Source of the DNA: Chloroflexota bacterium
GTDB lineage: Bacteria > Chloroflexota > Limnocylindria > Limnocylindrales > CSP1-4
Direction of reading: 5' to 3'
Assembly: GCA_042408925.1 (NCBI GenBank)
Contig: JBHOQO010000075.1
Location: 1-61,163, forward strand
DNA length: 61,163 nt
This document shows, piece after piece, positions 2-6,450 of the stretch (the stretch's first letter is position 1; each line of letters starts with the position of its first letter). Made by a program: the position numbers and the translations under genes. Below the pieces are notes generated by a model. That model was not told the DNA's origin. It was given only the letters and a program-made list of their open reading frames with translations, and ran no database searches.

Positions 2-139
2 CCGACCCCGGGGCTCCTGGCCGCCCTCCGCCGAGCCCGCCGGATCGAGCCCGGGGTCTGGGCCGCGACGCTCCCGGGGCCGCCCGCGGCGCGGCCCGAC
101 GGACCGGCGCCCGACCTCGTTCGGAGGGCTCGGCCATGA
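2..139 (+). CDS. 3' end of an upstream CDS (partial, unknown product)
   Basis: Open frame PTPGLLAALRRARRIEPGVWAATLPGPP...RRARP* from the window edge. It ends in TGA 137-139, overlapping ATG 136 (ATGA coupling). Confidence 0.5.
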   Translation, partial: PTPGLLAALRRARRIEPGVWAATLPGPPAARPDGPAPDLVRRARP

Positions 140-888
140 GGCTCGCCGTGCGCCGCGCCGGCGTCGTCGCCGGCGTCGTCGCCAGCCTCGTCCTCGGCGC
201 CGCCTCGGTCAGGATCGCCGCCGAGTTGACCGCCGCCGCGGCGCCCCCGACCGTCCCGCCGGTCTCCATCGACACGCTCCGCCAGGCGCTCGCCGACGAG
301 CAGGCCCGCTCGGCCGCCCTCGAGGCTCAGCTCGCCGATCTGACCGGCCTCACCGAGCAGCTCCGAGCCGCCCTCGGCGAGACCGGCAGCCAGGTCGAGA
401 GCGACCAGCAGACGGCCGAGCAACTGCGCGCCAGGCTCGCCGACGCCGAGGCGAAGCTCGCGGCAACGACCCGGGCCCTCGCCGCCGCTCGGGCGCGCCT
501 CGCCGAGCTCGAGCGGGCGGCGACCGGCGGAGGGGCGACGAGCGGCGGCGGCTCGGCCGGGTCGGCGGCGGCGCCGAAGCCGACGCCGATCACCCTTGCC
601 ATCGACCTCGCCCTCGGCGGCGGCGGGGTGGCCGTCTCGTGGTCGGTGTGCCCGGTCGACGGCTTCGCCGCGTACGCCGTCGTCCGCTCGACCGACAAGG
701 AGGTCCACTGGCCGCCCGAAGACAACGACACCGAGATCGCCCGCCCGACGAACCGAGCAACGACGTCGGCCGTCGACGCGGGCGCCCCGTCGGGTACCCT
801 CGCCTACCGTGTCTACTGCCTCGTCCTCCGCGACGGCCAGCTGAAGGTGGCCGGCAAGAGCGGGACGGCGTCGATCGTGGTGCCGTGA
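136..888 (+). CDS. Exported or membrane-anchored coiled-coil protein with Gly/Ser linker and C-terminal FN3-like beta domain
   Basis: Hydrophobic N-terminus, heptad-like Ala/Leu/Glu/Arg stretch, GGGATSGGGSAGS linker, then VAVSWSVC...FAAYAVVRS...TSAVD...YRVYC (FN3-like pattern). Coupled to both neighbours. Confidence 0.7.
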   Translation: MRLAVRRAGVVAGVVASLVLGAASVRIAAELTAAAAPPTVPPVSIDTLRQALADEQARSAALEAQLADLTGLTEQLRAALGETGSQVESDQQTAEQLRARLADAEAKLAATTRALAAARARLAELERAATGGGATSGGGSAGSAAAPKPTPITLAIDLALGGGGVAVSWSVCPVDGFAAYAVVRSTDKEVHWPPEDNDTEIARPTNRATTSAVDAGAPSGTLAYRVYCLVLRDGQLKVAGKSGTASIVVP

Positions 889-1376
889 TGGTTCGCCCGC
901 AGGATCCCGGAGCGGACTCGAAGGCCGCGCGGTCGCGGTCGGCGCCGAAGCGGCCGTACCACGTCGTCGTCGCCGTCGGCCTCTCGACGGGCGTCTATGC
1001 CCTCAGCCTCGCCGGGGTCTCGATCCTCCAGTTCGAACACGACCGCCGCCTCATCGAGGCCCGCGAGCCGGTCGCCGACGCTGTCGCCGAGCTCGCCACC
1101 CGCCACGACCGGCTGACCCGGCGGCTCGACACCGTCCGCGGGGCGTACGAGCGGGCGGCCGACCGCTACGGGCTCGTCGGCGACGAGCTCCGCCGTCTCC
1201 ACGACCGCCTCGCCGACCTCCAGGGCCAGGTCGCCGCCATCGAGGGCGCCGCCGGACGGCTGCCGACGGCGATCTCGCTCCCCGCGGTGCCGCGGGCCAA
1301 GCCGGCCCCCGCCCCGGTCGTGAGCCAGTCGGCGCCGAAGACCCACGCCAAGACCGGAGCCTCGGGTGGCGGTTGA
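888..1376 (+). CDS. Single-TM coiled-coil protein ending in Pro-rich hinge and TGAS motif (candidate ApbE substrate)
   Basis: ATG 888 overlaps the upstream TGA (TGATG). Basic N-terminus, TM segment VVVAVGLSTGVYALSLAGVSIL, coiled coil, PAVPRAKPAPAP, then KTGASGGG*. Confidence 0.7.
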   Translation: MVRPQDPGADSKAARSRSAPKRPYHVVVAVGLSTGVYALSLAGVSILQFEHDRRLIEAREPVADAVAELATRHDRLTRRLDTVRGAYERAADRYGLVGDELRRLHDRLADLQGQVAAIEGAAGRLPTAISLPAVPRAKPAPAPVVSQSAPKTHAKTGASGGG

Positions 1377-2433
1377 GCCCGGGACCGGCCTGGCCGGCGA
1401 TCGACGCGGGGGCGCGGGCGATCCCGGCACCGGCCCCGCGGTCGTCCACCGGTTCGAGCGGCGGGTCATGGGCTCGCCGCTCCGCCTCACCCTCGTCTGT
1501 CGGCCCGACGACCCGCCGGCCCTCGCCGAGCGGGGCTGGCGTGCGGTGAGCGACGAGTTCGATGCCGCCGATCTCGCCTGCTCCCGCCACCGGCCGGAAT
1601 CCGAGCTCGTGGCCCTGAACGCGACGGCGGGGCGCGGTCAGGCCGTGCGGGTTTCGGCCCGGCTCTACGAGGCCGTCGCGACCGCCGAGCGGGCCTGGCG
1701 CCGAACCGGCGGCGCCTTCGACCCCCGGATCGCGGCCGATCTCGACCGCCTCGGCCAGCCGGGGGTCGTCCGGGTTCCCGCGACGGCCGCGGGCGATCCG
1801 GCGGACCGGCCCGGCCGGCCCTGGCTCGTCCGGGAGCCCCGCCATCGCCGCCTCGTCCTGGCCGAGCCGATCGACCTCGGCGGGATCGGCAAGGGACTCG
1901 CTCTCCGCTGGGCCTGGCGACGGCTCGCCGCCGTCCTCGCCGCGGCCGGGGTCGACGACGGAACACGCGGCTCCCGGTCGAAGCCGCGCGCGCTCCTCGA
2001 GGCCGGGGGCGACCTCGTCGCCTCGGGGCCGGCGCCTGAAGGGGGCCCCTGGCTCGTGGGGATCGAGGATCCCGAGGGCGGCGAGGAGCCCCTCGCCGTC
2101 CTCGTCGCCGAGGGCGCCGTCTGCACCTCGTCGGTCCGGCTTGGACGCTGGCGCGACGGCGCCGACCGGGTCGTCCACCACCTCGTCGATCCCCGGACCG
2201 GAGAGCCCGGGGGCGAAGGGCTCCTCGCGGTGACCGTCGCCGGCCCCGACCCGGCCTGGGCCGAGGTCTGGACGAAGGCCTGCTTCCTCGCCGGCCGCTC
2301 CGGGATCGAGGCCGAGGCGCTCCGGCGCCGGCTCGCGGCCTGGTGGATCGGGGCCGACGGCGAGCTGACGATGACCCGGGCGGCGGCGGAGCAAACGGTC
2401 TGGTCGACGGCCGGCTGGCGAATCGTCGGCTGA
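1366..2433 (+). CDS. apbE: FAD:protein FMN transferase (ApbE family)
   Basis: Motifs FDPRI, DLGGIGKG, EAGGDLVASG, WLVGIEDP, CTSS, HHLVDPRTG. No obvious signal peptide. Confidence 0.9.
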   Translation: MAVEPGTGLAGDRRGGAGDPGTGPAVVHRFERRVMGSPLRLTLVCRPDDPPALAERGWRAVSDEFDAADLACSRHRPESELVALNATAGRGQAVRVSARLYEAVATAERAWRRTGGAFDPRIAADLDRLGQPGVVRVPATAAGDPADRPGRPWLVREPRHRRLVLAEPIDLGGIGKGLALRWAWRRLAAVLAAAGVDDGTRGSRSKPRALLEAGGDLVASGPAPEGGPWLVGIEDPEGGEEPLAVLVAEGAVCTSSVRLGRWRDGADRVVHHLVDPRTGEPGGEGLLAVTVAGPDPAWAEVWTKACFLAGRSGIEAEALRRRLAAWWIGADGELTMTRAAAEQTVWSTAGWRIVG

Positions 2434-2516: not shown

Positions 2517-3176
2517 CTAGGCGTCCACCGGGACGAGCCCGACCCGGACCGCGAAGCGGACGAGCCCTGGGACGTCGTGGATGTCGAGCCGCTCCATGAG
2601 CGCCGCCCGATGCGTCTCGACGGTCTTGACGCCGATCCCCAGGGCGTGGGCGATCTCCTGGTTCGTCCGCCCCTCGGCGATGAGCTGGATGATTTCGACC
2701 TGCCGCGGCGTAAGCCGGGCGAGGGGGCCCTGGTCCGACCCCGTCCGCCCGGCGAGCAGGTCGGCGACGACCGAGGTCGAGACGCTCGGGCTCAAGTAGA
2801 TCCGACCGCGGGCGACGGCGCGAAGGGCGAGGTCGAGCTCGTCGGGGTCGGCGTCCTTGAGGAGGTACCCGGCGGCCCCGAGGCGGAGCGACTGGCGGAC
2901 GTACTCCTCGCCGTCGTGGACCGAGAGCATGAGAACGCGCGGCGCCGGCTCCCGCGCCGTCAGCCGCCGCAGGACCTGGAGGCCGCCGAGGCCCGGCAGC
3001 GTGATGTCGAGGAGGACGACGTCGGGTCGGAGGGCGTCGACGAGCTCGAGGGCGGCGGCGCCGTCGGACGCCTCCCCGACGACACTGACCCCGTTCCGGC
3101 CGTCGAGGATCGCCCGGAGTCCGGCCCGCACGAGCCCGTGGTCCTCGACAATGAGGACCCGGAGCCGGCTCGTCAT
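2517..3176 (-). CDS. NarL/LuxR-family response regulator
   Basis: LIVEDHGLVRAG, DVVLLDITLPG, GYLLKDA, LTPRQVEIIQLIAEGRTNQEIA...KTVETHRAALMERL. Confidence 0.93.
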   Translation of the reverse strand: MTSRLRVLIVEDHGLVRAGLRAILDGRNGVSVVGEASDGAAALELVDALRPDVVLLDITLPGLGGLQVLRRLTAREPAPRVLMLSVHDGEEYVRQSLRLGAAGYLLKDADPDELDLALRAVARGRIYLSPSVSTSVVADLLAGRTGSDQGPLARLTPRQVEIIQLIAEGRTNQEIAHALGIGVKTVETHRAALMERLDIHDVPGLVRFAVRVGLVPVDA

Positions 3177-4129
3177 CGGTGACGGGCCGCGGACGCGAGG
3201 CCGACGCCTGCCCCCGGCCGGGCGAGCGGTTCGGGAGCGGGCGCCACGAACCGCTCAGGATGTCGGCTCGGCGCCTCCTCCGACCCGGGCGTCGATCGAA
3301 CCGCCGGCGCCCCGTCGAGGGGGAAGCGGGCTCGGATCCGGGTCCCGGCGTCCGGTGCCGACCGGATGTCGAGCTCGCCGCCGACCGCGAGGACCCGGGC
3401 CCGCATCCCCCAGAGGCCGCTGCTCGCTCCGGCGGCGGCGGCGAGGGTAGCTCGGACGACGTCGAAGCCCCGGCCGTCGTCGGCGACGACGAGCTCGAGC
3501 CAGCGCCCGCTGCGCCGGAGGACGACGTCGACGACCCTCGCCCCGGCGTGGCGATCGATGTTCGTGAGGGCCTCCTCGAGGACCCGGTAGCAGGCGGTCT
3601 CGACGGCGTCGGGGAGTGTCGCCTCGAGGCCGGCGCAGCGGATCCTGGCCCGGAAGCCGGCGAGGGCGGCGTGGCGGGCGAGCCCGCTTCGGGCGGCCGC
3701 CTCGAGCCCCAGATCGGCGACGATCGACGGGCGGAGCTCGCGAACGAACGAACGGACGGCTCGGAGCGCCTCGTCGATCTGCTGGAGGCAGACGTCGAGC
3801 GGGGTCCGCGAGCCCTGGGGGAGCCCGTCCCGGCCGAGGGCGACGATGGCGAGTCGGACGGCCGTCAGGGCCTGGCCGACGACGTCGTGGAGCTCGCGGG
3901 CGAGCCGCTGGCGCTCGAGCTCGATCGGCTCGCCGGACGGCGGCGGTGCGCCGGGACCCGAGGGACCGGCTGACGTCGAGGCCGACCGGGCCGCCGGCGA
4001 GCTGCCGGTCGCCGGCGAGCTGCCGGTCGTGCCCTGCGCCGCGGCGCCTCCGTCCTCCGAGCGGTCGGTGGGCGGAACCGACGCTCGGCTCCGCGCACTC
4101 CGTGGCGTTGGCAAGACGGGCCCGATCAC
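3173..4129 (-). CDS. HisKA_3 histidine kinase without recognisable sensor or TM domain
   Basis: ERQRLARELHDVVGQ, EEALTNIDRH, DDGRGF, SSGLWGMRARV. GTG 4129 has a GGAGGAGG RBS; the N-terminus is low complexity. Confidence 0.85.
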   Translation of the reverse strand: MIGPVLPTPRSARSRASVPPTDRSEDGGAAAQGTTGSSPATGSSPAARSASTSAGPSGPGAPPPSGEPIELERQRLARELHDVVGQALTAVRLAIVALGRDGLPQGSRTPLDVCLQQIDEALRAVRSFVRELRPSIVADLGLEAAARSGLARHAALAGFRARIRCAGLEATLPDAVETACYRVLEEALTNIDRHAGARVVDVVLRRSGRWLELVVADDGRGFDVVRATLAAAAGASSGLWGMRARVLAVGGELDIRSAPDAGTRIRARFPLDGAPAVRSTPGSEEAPSRHPERFVAPAPEPLARPGAGVGLASAARHR

Positions 4130-4537
4130 GTTCCCCTCCTCCACGTTCTGCGGCCGTGCCTGGCGTGCCAAACCGGCGATAGACACCCCTGCAGATCTCG
4201 CGATCGTCGCGCATCGATCGCCGAGCCGGTCGATGCCGTTCCCCTGTCACGGACGGCGGCGGGGACGAGCCGCCGTGCCATCAGGATCGCCCGTCGGGGC
4301 GGGCGCGGCAAGATCGCGGAAGGCGACCAATCGCGATGGTCATCATCGACCAGTTGCCGGGTCCGAACCGACCACGAGCGCGCGGATCGGGCGGGGCGGG
4401 CTCCCGGGCGATCGTGGCCGAGACGGAGGGTCGGGCTGGCGGACCCGTGTCGAGGCTCGGGAGGGGTTGACGACCCGCCTATACTCGCGGGTATCGGATG
4501 CGCCCTGTGGCGCGGCCGGGGCGCCGTCGATGGCGAG

Positions 4538-5683
4538 GTGGAGGTAGCGGAGGCGATGGGGGCCCAGCCGGTCGAACCCGGTCCGGTCCAGGAACAGCGT
4601 CGGTTCCGGCGTTGGCTCGCCGGGGAGCCGACATGGCTTCAGGCGGCCCTCGATCTGTTCGGCCTGTTCGTCATCGTCCTCACCTTCGCCCAGGCGGGCG
4701 ACCCGGATTTCCTCTTCCACGTCGTCTGGGTCGTCCTGGCGATCGAGGCGTTCCTCTTCGGCCTCCGGGTGACCGCCCTCCGGATCGCGCTGGCGACGGG
4801 CTTCCTCCTCGGCTACGAGCTCGCCGTCGAGGCGGAGCTCGCCCTCGCCGGCCGGCCGCTCGTGCCGCTCGAGTTCTCGATCTGGCCGGTCTCCGAGTGG
4901 CCGCTCATGGTCGTCATCTCGATCATCGTCGCGGTCATGGCCGACCGACTCGCCACGACCGGGCGTCGCTACGCGGGCCTCTACCGGCGGGCGAACGACC
5001 GGCTCCTCTCGGCTCAGGAACAGGAGCGTCGCCGCCTCGCCCGGGACCTCCACGACGGCGTCGGCCAGACGCTGACCGCCCTGACCCTGACCCTCGACGC
5101 CGCCGAGTCGCTCCTCTGGGCCGGCCCCGAGAAGCCGCCGGAGCACGCCCGGGCGGCGATCCGCCGGGCCCAGGAGCTCGCGGCAGCGGCCCTCGAGGAG
5201 ACCCGGGGCGTCGCCTTCCAGCTCCGGCCGGCCCGGCTCCACGAGACCGGCCTCGTCGCCGCCATCTCGGAGCTGGCGCGGATGGCCGGTCGCCCGGTCG
5301 AGGTCGTCGCCGAGCCCCGGCTGATCCGCCTCGGGCTCCTGGCCCCGGAGGCCGAGGTCGAGGCGTACCGGATCGTCCAGGAGGCGCTCGGGAACGCCCT
5401 CCGCCACGCCCGGGCGGAGCGGATCCGGATCGAGGCCGGCCTCGCCGGCGAGCGGCTCGTCGTCCGGGTCGTCGACGACGGCGTCGGGTTCGACCCCGAT
5501 CGGGTCCAGGGGCTGGGGCTCCCGGGGATGCAGGAGCGGGCGGCGGCGATCGGGGCCGTCCTCGCCGTCGTCAGCCGGCCGGGTCGAGGGACGACGGTCA
5601 CCCTCTCGATCCCCCTCGCCGGGCACCCCCGGTCGGTCTCCGGCGAGGTCGTCGACGCCGCGCCGATGGCGGCTCGGACCTAG
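4538..5683 (+). CDS. Membrane HisKA_3 sensor histidine kinase
   Basis: About 4 hydrophobic segments, then ERRRLARDLHDGVGQ, QEALGNALRH, DDGVGFD, GLGLPGMQERA. Start may be ATG 4556. Confidence 0.9.
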   Translation: MEVAEAMGAQPVEPGPVQEQRRFRRWLAGEPTWLQAALDLFGLFVIVLTFAQAGDPDFLFHVVWVVLAIEAFLFGLRVTALRIALATGFLLGYELAVEAELALAGRPLVPLEFSIWPVSEWPLMVVISIIVAVMADRLATTGRRYAGLYRRANDRLLSAQEQERRRLARDLHDGVGQTLTALTLTLDAAESLLWAGPEKPPEHARAAIRRAQELAAAALEETRGVAFQLRPARLHETGLVAAISELARMAGRPVEVVAEPRLIRLGLLAPEAEVEAYRIVQEALGNALRHARAERIRIEAGLAGERLVVRVVDDGVGFDPDRVQGLGLPGMQERAAAIGAVLAVVSRPGRGTTVTLSIPLAGHPRSVSGEVVDAAPMAART

Positions 5684-5694
5684 GGGCGAGGGCC

Positions 5695-6450
5695 GTGACG
5701 CCGGCGCGGGCTCGGACGTCGGCGGCCGAAGCGGCCGCCGACGGCGGGGCGGTCGTTGTGGGTGAATTCCATGGCGGAGGCGGGACGGCGCCGGGCGCGT
5801 CGGCCCGCGGTCCTGGTGCGATCCGGATCGGGATCGTCGAGGACCACGCCCTCGTCCGCGAAGGGCTCCGCCTCGTCCTCGAGCACGAACCGGGCCTCGT
5901 CGTCGTCGGCGAAGCCGACGGCTCCCAATCGGCCTTCGAGCTCCTCGCCGCCGACCCGGACATCCTGCTCGTCGACATCACGCTCCCCGATGTCGACGGG
6001 ATCGCCCTGATCCGGGCGCTCCTCGCGCGCCGCCCGGAGGCCCGGGTCATCGCCCTGACGATGCACCGGGATGCCGAGACGGTCCGGCAGGCGCTCCTGG
6101 CCGGGGCGCGCGGCTACGTCGTCAAGGGGGCCCGGTCGGCGGAGCTTGCCGACGCGATCCGGGCGGTCGCTCGGGGTGAGCGCTACCTCCACAGCTCGGT
6201 GACCGGGGTCATCGTCGACGACTCGATCCGCTGGCTCCAGTCGGGCGGCACGTTGAGCGCCCGGGAGCGCGAGGTCCTGAGTCTCCTCGCCGCCGGGAAC
6301 TCCTCGACGAGCGTGGCGAAGCTGCTCGGCATCAGCCCGCACACGGTCCGCCGTCACGTCGCGAACCTGTCGGCGAAGCTGAAGGTCCGGGGGATCGCCG
6401 GGCTGACCCGCTACGCCACCCAGCACGGGCTCGTCCGCGACGGCGACTGA
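5695..6450 (+). CDS. NarL/LuxR-family response regulator
   Basis: IVEDHALVREG, DILLVDITLPD, GYVVKG, LSAREREVLSLLAAG...HTVRRHVANL. Start GTG 5695 is uncertain. Confidence 0.9.
   Translation: MTPARARTSAAEAAADGGAVVVGEFHGGGGTAPGASARGPGAIRIGIVEDHALVREGLRLVLEHEPGLVVVGEADGSQSAFELLAADPDILLVDITLPDVDGIALIRALLARRPEARVIALTMHRDAETVRQALLAGARGYVVKGARSAELADAIRAVARGERYLHSSVTGVIVDDSIRWLQSGGTLSAREREVLSLLAAGNSSTSVAKLLGISPHTVRRHVANLSAKLKVRGIAGLTRYATQHGLVRDGD

Follow-up and report, generated by a model that had tools for sequence, protein, structure and literature searches.

A 61,163-nucleotide (nt) stretch of DNA from a Chloroflexota bacterium (Limnocylindria; Limnocylindrales; CSP1-4; assembly GCA_042408925.1, contig JBHOQO010000075.1; G+C about 75%), referred to here as the window, carries a gene, here called gene C, that overlaps the start of apbE and encodes a predicted membrane-anchored coiled-coil stalk ending in a flavinylation-type peptide. 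ApbE flavinylation is the main means by which bacteria keep flavin outside the cytoplasm, and in all accepted ApbE substrates, to our knowledge, the flavin sits within a folded domain. We propose that the sole functional 'domain' of the gene C protein is a tag of 7-8 residues, [H/N]-A-x-T-G-A-S-G, on a floppy tail, and that gene C is thus a domain-less ApbE substrate, a natural 'flavin-tag'. We give this reading, with the full mechanism set out below, a probability of roughly 0.6; Ser159 is the probable acceptor of flavin mononucleotide (FMN), as judged from the conservation of the tag.

The gene C product (162 residues) reads, in segments from its N-terminus, MVRPQDPGADSKAARSRSAPKRPYH / VVVAVGLSTGVYALSLAGVSILQF / EHDRR...IEGAAG / RLPTAISLPAVPRAKPAPAPVVSQSAPKTHAKTGASGGG, followed by the stop codon. 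The first-pass annotation of this DNA had described a basic N-terminus, one transmembrane (TM) helix, a coiled coil, a Pro-rich hinge and a terminal KTGASGGG, and all of these elements were present. Six of the first 23 residues are Lys or Arg, and the TM segment has a mean Kyte-Doolittle hydropathy of 1.86 (19-residue window). AlphaFold2 (AF2), run with a 73-sequence alignment, gave a single continuous helix over residues 24-123, with a predicted local distance difference test score (pLDDT) of 96-98 across residues 60-120. The coiled-coil part of this helix is 76 residues long (48-123) and uninterrupted, and its heptads are unbroken over residues 62-123, with Leu, Ile, Val, Met or Phe at 72% of a/d positions versus 2% elsewhere, a bias that none of 2000 shuffles equalled. 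The 39-residue tail (124-162), in which seven residues are Pro, was modelled as disordered, and the linker within it had a pLDDT of 54-70 and no secondary structure. Gene C matched no Pfam or NCBIfam family, and gave only sub-threshold matches to coiled-coil models. The folds of known ApbE substrates (FMN_bind, NqrB/RnfD, DUF2271, DUF3570, FMN_red, Flavodoxin_4) were likewise absent by Pfam and NCBIfam, and the AF2 model was a long helix with a disordered tail, in agreement with the initial view that the protein has no folded FMN-binding domain.

The tag lies at the very end of the gene, with TGAS encoded at 1353-1364, the Ser159 codon at 1362-1364, and then G-G-G and the stop codon. Conservation of TGAS among orthologues beside apbE had been set beforehand as the point on which the idea could be refuted, and the conservation proved strong. 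A word-indexed search found 27 gene C homologues of 40-96% identity, every one of which ends in [T/S]GASG plus 0-2 residues. A wider set came from a genome scan with two peptide patterns of the ApbE subfamily, DPAWAEVW and [PL][IV]DLGGIGK; the locus search was seeded from the ApbE alignment, as the gene C alignment contained no stretch conserved enough to seed one. The scan returned more than 545 relatives, and the best 80 loci were analysed, all of them in Chloroflexota metagenome-assembled genomes, mostly labelled Limnocylindria/Limnocylindrales or 'uncultured Chloroflexia'. The open reading frame (ORF) immediately 5' of apbE at these loci gave 79 distinct tails. Numbered from the acceptor Ser at position 0, Ser(0) and Gly(+1) are invariant (79/79 each), Ala occupies position -1 in 76/79, and position -3 is always Thr (76) or Ser (3). 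Position -2 is Gly in 52 tails, Thr in 16 and another residue in the rest; Ala is found at -5 in 61/79 and Pro at -9 in 73/79, while position -6 is mostly His (38) or Asn (23), followed by Ser (6), Gln (6) and Asp (3). The stop codon falls 1-5 residues past the acceptor Ser in all 79. The linker before the tag varies in length and sequence and is unalignable, and the family alignment has a mean column identity of 27%.

With gene C as query, an index-free hidden Markov model (HMM) search over 1.84 billion cluster representatives matched 581 proteins at an E-value of 1e-3 or lower; 282 of these remained at a cut-off of 1e-10 and 128 at 1e-30. Among 146 newly fetched best matches, which are cluster representatives, 129 carry [ST]x[AGP][ST]G in their final 14 residues; about 10 of the other 17 end in close variants (TGASA, TGGSA, TGAST), and the remainder appear truncated or spurious. 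At 50% identity the family comprises no fewer than 282 clusters, and it occurs in most Limnocylindria, an abundant class of soil and freshwater Chloroflexota.

Compared with the published D-x-x-[S/T]-G-A-[S/T] motif, the gene C tag [H/N]-A-x-T-G-A-S fits each position except the Asp, where His, Asn, Gln or Asp stands. Seven residues suffice for flavinylation, and tags at a terminus are modified best (PMC12052999). In the same source, changing the motif Asp to Ala had a minor effect, changing Gly to Ala halved the yield, and Ser was accepted, less well than Thr. Flavinylation on an unstructured C-terminal extension has been described for FMN_red proteins (Huang et al. 2024, 10.1101/2024.03.13.584918). 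Other explanations of a conserved C-terminus were considered and rejected: a sorting signal for sortase, PEP-CTERM or rhombosortase, as no TM segment or basic tail follows the motif, and a ubiquitin- or Pup-like GG-COOH, as the residues past S-G vary (G, GG, H, KP, KPC, AP, R). In 19 of the 79 tails, including those at loci L014, L019, L023, L026, L035, L036 and L038, the tag is bracketed by Cys (A-C-T-T-A-S-G-K-P-C). The paired Cys may be joined by a disulfide so that the acceptor Ser sits in a closed loop, which would fit a location outside the cell.

The ApbE of the window matches PF02424 with an E-value of 1e-39 (137 bits; cut-off 25.6), and its profile finds the solved ApbE/Ftp structures in the PDB at E-values of 7e-24 to 6e-14. 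Its catalytic-His motif HHLxDPRTG aligns to HVIDPQTG, with VHHLVDPRTGEP aligned to sHVIDPQTGRP of 3pnd and 4xgw. The catalytic His itself (His257 in Vibrio cholerae, in the motif H-x-I-D-P-x-T-G) is kept, and was invariant across the six ApbE family members compared. By these alignments the enzyme is a true homologue of the solved FMN transferases within a divergent subfamily. The GTG at 1366 is its sole plausible start, because the conserved family N-terminus (R-F-E-R-R-A-M-G-S-P-L-R-L-T; ...VHRFERRVMGSPLRLT in the window) precedes the first ATG. This start overlaps the gene C stop by 11 nt, which bears out the overlap noted at first pass, and gene C adjoins or overlaps apbE in about 75 loci. 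Judged from this layout, apbE is translationally coupled to gene C.

The operon holds two further genes, and mapping of the four proteins by tblastn at the best 80 loci gave the order A-B-C-ApbE in about 72. Gene B encodes a second stalk, with heptads across residues 45-130 (86 residues; shuffle p<0.0005). Its C-terminus differs between genomes. In 20 of 79 it carries [ST]GASG, mostly as H-A-T-T-G-A-S-G, and ends in a short acidic (Gly/Asp) tail instead of a beta domain; most other genomes have a His/Asp/Glu-rich tail, and the window's clade has a beta-rich domain of about 100 residues with two conserved Cys. The window's own copy of gene B lacks the [ST]GASG motif, and its beta domain matched nothing in Pfam or among PDB sequences, leaving only an 'FN3-like' impression. 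Among the 19 genomes with a Cys-bracketed gene C tail, 15 have a plain HATTGASG-type tag (or its TGPSG variant) with the acidic tail on gene B. The operon contains no FMN_bind gene. We propose from these sequences that gene B is, in many genomes, an ApbE substrate like gene C. The occurrence of the same tag on two different stalk proteins beside apbE is our strongest single argument that the heptapeptide is a modification site.

The N-terminus of gene B has the anatomy of a signal peptide, with a short N-region, a moderately hydrophobic stretch and an Ala-rich, A-x-A-like c-region, typically I-R-A-A-A-A-W-T-A. A twin arginine stands just before the hydrophobic region in 77/77 distinct orthologues and is never KR, RK or KK, though Lys occurs nearby. 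This suggests that gene B is exported via the twin-arginine translocation (Tat) pathway. For gene C, P23 and H25 are conserved at 90% or more in the family alignment, and the Arg pair before the TM helix (R-R-P-x-H) was found in only 46 of 69 sequences, so that gene C was rejected as a canonical Tat substrate. Its topology is predicted to be N-in/C-out because Lys and Arg are in excess on the N-terminal flank, with a mean of 3.17 in the 15 residues before the TM segment against 1.27 after it, and more before than after in 68 of 80 sequences.

The first-pass annotation had suggested that a ferric-reductase or MsrQ-like partner be sought to the left, and the window does begin with the end of one: positions 2-139 (frame 2) align with the C-terminus of a 333-residue protein resembling the ferric reductase domain (FRD) at the orthologous locus L007 (82% identical), and this gene A heads the operon at the loci with the order given above. 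Gene A proteins have 213-409 residues (median 239) and six predicted TM helices. Their invariant residues include H66, H83, H97, H159 and H172 (L005 numbering), and the pairs H-x13-H in TM3 (H83/H97, 14 apart) and H-x12-H in TM5 (H159/H172, 13 apart) have the FRD spacing. We assign gene A to the FRD group from this His spacing, near-threshold Pfam scores and source annotations. Two close relatives, P0043 and P0106, reached 27.9 and 25.6 bits on PF01794 over the full length of the model, just short of the cut-off of 28; 29 of 31 gene A members weakly matched PF01292; and many members carry the JGI names YedZ or 'predicted ferric reductase'. Neither gene A nor gene B matched NCBIfam, and a gene A profile returned only noise against PDB sequences. 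In Escherichia coli MsrQ the corresponding residues are R77/H91 and H151/H164 (PMC12525009). Because a His stands where MsrQ has Arg77, gene A should be a two-haem cytochrome of the NOX type, and not one with a haem and an internal FMN as in MsrQ/STEAP. Gene A has no dehydrogenase or NAD(P)H-binding domain. A flavinylation site inside gene A was rejected, as it has no conserved [ST]GA[ST]-like column.

Some further observations concern these partners. The near-invariant His25 of gene C (in R-R-P-x-H) lies at the cytoplasmic membrane face and has a counterpart in His66 of gene A (in S-H-P), apart from the four haem ligands; the two might form a joint ligand or contact site. In a sublineage comprising L001/L002 (10001-10627) and L011, genes A and B have been lost. 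Gene C has a different N-terminus there, in which R-R-P-x-H is missing and the TM segment is weaker, yet it still ends in TGASGGG and is still overlapped by apbE. At L015 (3956-4912), genes B and C read as one ORF of 318 residues, which reflects either a true fusion or a frameshift in the assembly.

Taken together, these features are consistent with the following mechanism. The co-translated leaderless ApbE would move FMN from flavin adenine dinucleotide (FAD) to Ser159. As ApbE carries no signal for export, the FMN is most likely attached in the cytoplasm, on the part of the chain that exits last, with export afterwards, for gene B through Tat; a cytoplasmic step is the simplest reconciliation because FAD is available there and the tag is the last segment to leave. 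Leaderless ApbEs are known, as are cytosolic ApbEs with cytosolic substrates in Klebsiella pneumoniae (PMC12052999). Tagged gene C, in its predicted N-in/C-out orientation, would then stand beside the two-haem cytochrome of gene A, a pairing suggested by synteny, and this cytochrome would carry electrons across the membrane. The tethered flavin would take electrons from the outer haem and hand them to an extracytosolic acceptor. We infer flavin attachment and a 'swinging arm' at the cell surface, as the first-pass annotation had done. The Cys that bracket some tags, and the two in the beta domain of gene B, speak for an oxidising compartment.

The acceptor would most likely be Fe(III) or Mn(III/IV), reduced for assimilation by a ZnuA/ABC-3 importer. 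Directly upstream of gene A and on the same strand, 42 of the 80 loci carry genes for a ZnuA-type binding protein (PF01297), an ABC ATPase and an ABC-3 permease (PF00950), which occur in two gene orders (for example at L013:107-3092). Flavinylation clusters described earlier frequently have links to iron assimilation (Meheust et al. 2021, PMC8238504). An assimilatory Fe or Mn reductase is favoured because of the importer adjacency, the His/Asp/Glu-rich tails of gene B and these published ties. Gene B, its tag in many genomes, its Tat-like signal and the link of the family to metal uptake genes all go beyond what was noted at first.

Several results weigh against this picture, beginning with the tag. 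The 'strictly conserved' Asp at position -6 is mostly absent from the gene C tails (Asp in 3/79), Gly(-2) is replaced by Thr, Ser, Cys, Arg, Asn or Ala in 27/79, and the acceptor is always Ser, whereas characterised ApbEs favour Thr. In the enzyme, the metal-site Asp (the E. coli D280 region) aligns to an invariant Glu (A-E-V-W-T-K), with the metal-site Thr off by one position in the alignment. The position of E. coli Tyr60, which stacks on FAD (PMC4767422), is His in the window's clade and Phe in the distant relatives at L003 and L005. The tail is predicted to lie outside the cell, and no signal peptide or hydrophobic N-terminal segment was found on ApbE, read in its true frame, in the 82 loci examined, so that what had been noticed for the window's ApbE holds family-wide. 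The first 34 residues of ApbE are not hydrophobic (maximum Kyte-Doolittle 0.27 in a 15-residue window). From the gene C stop to ApbE the gap is mostly 30-150 nt across loci and often only 30-50 nt, and there is therefore no room for a signal peptide. Export of a pre-flavinylated tail is further burdened by the lack of an invariant Arg pair in gene C, and in the model the rigid 11-nm stalk would put the tag far from the outer haem. An AF2 model of gene A (pLDDT 76.5) gave no Foldseek match at E<=0.001, the best being cytochrome b561 (probability 0.66) and a bacterial NOX (0.44). Finally, no metal transporter lies within reach of the operon in the window's own clade.

How far these points favour another explanation depends on which part of the proposal is given up. 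If all of it is, TGAS becomes a tetrapeptide that arose by chance in a high-GC protein rich in Gly, Ala, Ser and Thr, and gene C a coiled-coil membrane protein that merely neighbours apbE. By our composition estimate, one [ST]GA[ST] is expected in about 3% of 162-residue high-GC proteins, but an invariant motif at the extreme C-terminus of 79 distinct tails and about 95% of the 146 representatives, behind an unalignable linker, refutes this explanation, to which we assign next to no probability. A rather unlikely alternative keeps the conserved tail without the flavin. The motif would then act as a docking peptide or carry a different modification (O-glycosylation, phosphorylation, processing), and ApbE would serve another substrate or act on behalf of the cytochrome as an FAD pyrophosphatase or flavin-trafficking enzyme. 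The missing canonical Asp, the variable Gly(-2) and the substituted Asp and Tyr of ApbE fit such a role, as does the FAD hydrolysis carried out by some Ftp/ApbE enzymes. Yet the invariant core T-x-A-S-G matches the ApbE motif at each position, ApbE is the only enzyme co-inherited with the tag in about 75 loci and appears translationally coupled to it, gene A has no other conserved [ST]GA[ST]-type site, and the residues past S-G are too variable for a GG-COOH or sorting-signal tail.

The remaining alternative accepts flavinylation and inverts the topology: genes B and C would be N-out/C-in, and the flavinylated tag would stay in the cytoplasm, where a soluble flavin reductase would reduce it and electrons would enter at the inner haem, the role played by FAD in NOX. 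In its favour, ApbE is leaderless at every locus, and cytosolic enzyme and substrates together are known from K. pneumoniae. Gene A keeps both inner-haem His and has no NAD(P)H-binding domain, so an input module is needed, and MsrQ of E. coli gets its electrons by way of a flavin at the cytoplasmic face (PMC12525009). Against this, the positive-inside rule gives N-in for 68 of 80 gene C proteins, and their Arg-rich N-terminal extensions of 20-100 residues, which have no signal peptide, are unlikely to be translocated. The signal-peptide-like N-terminus of gene B, with its invariant Arg pair and A-x-A-like c-region, points outward as well, as do the Cys in the bracketed tags and the gene B domain, which suggest an oxidising compartment, and the link to an importer with an extracytoplasmic binding protein. 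We consider a cytoplasmic flavin quite improbable.

Within the preferred reading, in which gene C carries an outward-facing FMN tag, a more specific picture is tentative and on balance doubtful. In this 'flavin fishing rod', the tag would be flavinylated in the cytoplasm without FAD export, the B and C stalks would be exported, B through Tat, and assembled beside the NOX-type cytochrome, and electrons would cross the cell wall to reach Fe(III) or oxides of Mn. The flavin would sit on a 39-residue tether atop an 11-nm stalk and serve reductive metal uptake. The positions of the operon features are collected in Table 1.

Table 1. Operon features at the left end of the window
Feature	Position	Strand	Basis or remarks
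Gene A, 3' end (last 45 codons)	2..139	+	Translated frame 2 matches L007 gene A at its C-terminal end; ATGA overlap with gene B start at 136
Gene B	136..888	+	Tat-like twin-arginine signal or anchor, 86-residue coiled coil, Gly/Ser linker, beta-rich C-terminal domain with two conserved Cys (window's clade)
Gene C, 162 residues; predicted N-in/C-out single-pass protein with coiled-coil stalk and terminal flavinylation-type tag	888..1376	+	
Gene C transmembrane helix, residues 24-47	957..1028	+	Conserved [RK]-R-P-x-H precedes; hydropathy
Gene C coiled-coil stalk, residues 48-123	1029..1256	+	AF2 single helix; heptad register
Gene C Pro-rich flexible linker, residues 124-152	1257..1343	+	Low pLDDT, no secondary structure; variable in orthologues
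Gene C terminal tag H153-A-K-T-G-A-S159-G160	1344..1367	+	Logo of 79 distinct orthologue tails
Leaderless ApbE (FAD:protein FMN transferase)	1366..2433	+	PF02424; overlaps gene C

Directly downstream of apbE, the window encodes two response regulators of the LuxR/NarL type and two HisKA_3 histidine kinases (2517-6450). The four two-component genes are syntenic after apbE in L003, L008 and L009 and lie between gene C and apbE in L020/L021; because of these placements, the LuxR/HisKA_3 pairs are probably regulators of the operon in the window's subclade. Also in this clade, and divergent from gene A, L007 (2-5287, minus strand) and L003 (123-6320, minus strand) encode a surface-type protein of 1762-2065 residues with SdrD_B, CarboxypepD_reg, TIG and beta-helix domains. 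The gene C proteins of L003 and L007 are only about 45% identical, and a multicopper oxidase lies beside the L003 surface protein.

Judging from the gene C family, a stalk with nothing but a terminal tag may suffice as an ApbE substrate. No account of the family turned up in literature searches. Flavinylation clusters of the MsrQ-like kind have been defined, and some orphan apbE genes have no known substrate (Meheust et al. 2021, PMC8238504). That screen covered only ApbE and FMN_bind proteins with a signal peptide and would have missed the gene C family. If our reading holds, some of these 'orphan' apbE genes would be explained, and the biotechnological flavin-tag would gain a natural counterpart with new sequence rules (a Ser acceptor, His or Asn at -6, Gly at +1). 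It would also raise the question of how a pre-flavinylated protein is exported, by Tat or Sec, and would point to an unstudied route of reductive metal uptake in uncultured soil bacteria. Should the fishing-rod picture be true as well, gene C would be the first natural protein with an ApbE tag alone as its redox module and the first case of export after flavinylation.

Known systems share parts of this arrangement. ApbE flavinylation coupled to an FRD cytochrome is known; a substrate with no flavin-binding fold, served by a leaderless transferase, would be new. Among the closest are the MsrQ-like clusters (Meheust et al. 2021, PMC8238504), which likewise combine apbE, a six-TM FRD cytochrome and a protein with [S/T]GA[S/T], and for which outward electron transfer, often for iron assimilation, was proposed. 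They are mostly actinobacterial and have an FMN_bind (PF04205) protein, a cytochrome that usually carries an NAD-binding domain, and an ApbE with a signal peptide or lipoprotein anchor, whereas the system described here, from Limnocylindria, has no FMN-binding fold, a cytochrome just below the PF01794 threshold with no dehydrogenase domain and a leaderless ApbE. E. coli MsrQ (PMC12525009) has the same FRD spacing as gene A (14 in TM3, 13 in TM5). Gene A differs by its His at the Arg77 position, which should give it two haems like NOX, unlike MsrQ and STEAP, and it has no dehydrogenase domain.

In the single-membrane setting of Listeria extracellular electron transfer (PplA/FmnB/EetAB), a membrane-anchored, covalently flavinylated surface protein is similarly fed by a membrane complex and reduces extracellular iron. 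PplA, unlike gene C, is a lipoprotein with two FMN_bind domains, the ApbE (FmnB) is extracytosolic and needs a dedicated FAD exporter, and the membrane partners are unrelated to FRD cytochromes. In FMN_red proteins (Huang et al. 2024, 10.1101/2024.03.13.584918) the motif also sits on a floppy C-terminal extension, and the flavin is tethered and not embedded at its attachment site. There the flavin folds back into a pocket of the same domain; the gene C coiled coil has no pocket, and any docking site must therefore lie on another protein. The tag itself resembles the engineered 'Flavin-tag' (Tong et al. 2021, reviewed in PMC12052999), a seven-residue terminal peptide ending in G-A-[S/T] that is modified by ApbE with no flavin-binding fold and works best at a terminus. 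The engineered peptides are DGLSGAT-like, with Asp and Thr, while the natural, conserved tail of gene C has His or Asn at -6, a Ser acceptor throughout and an invariant Gly after it.

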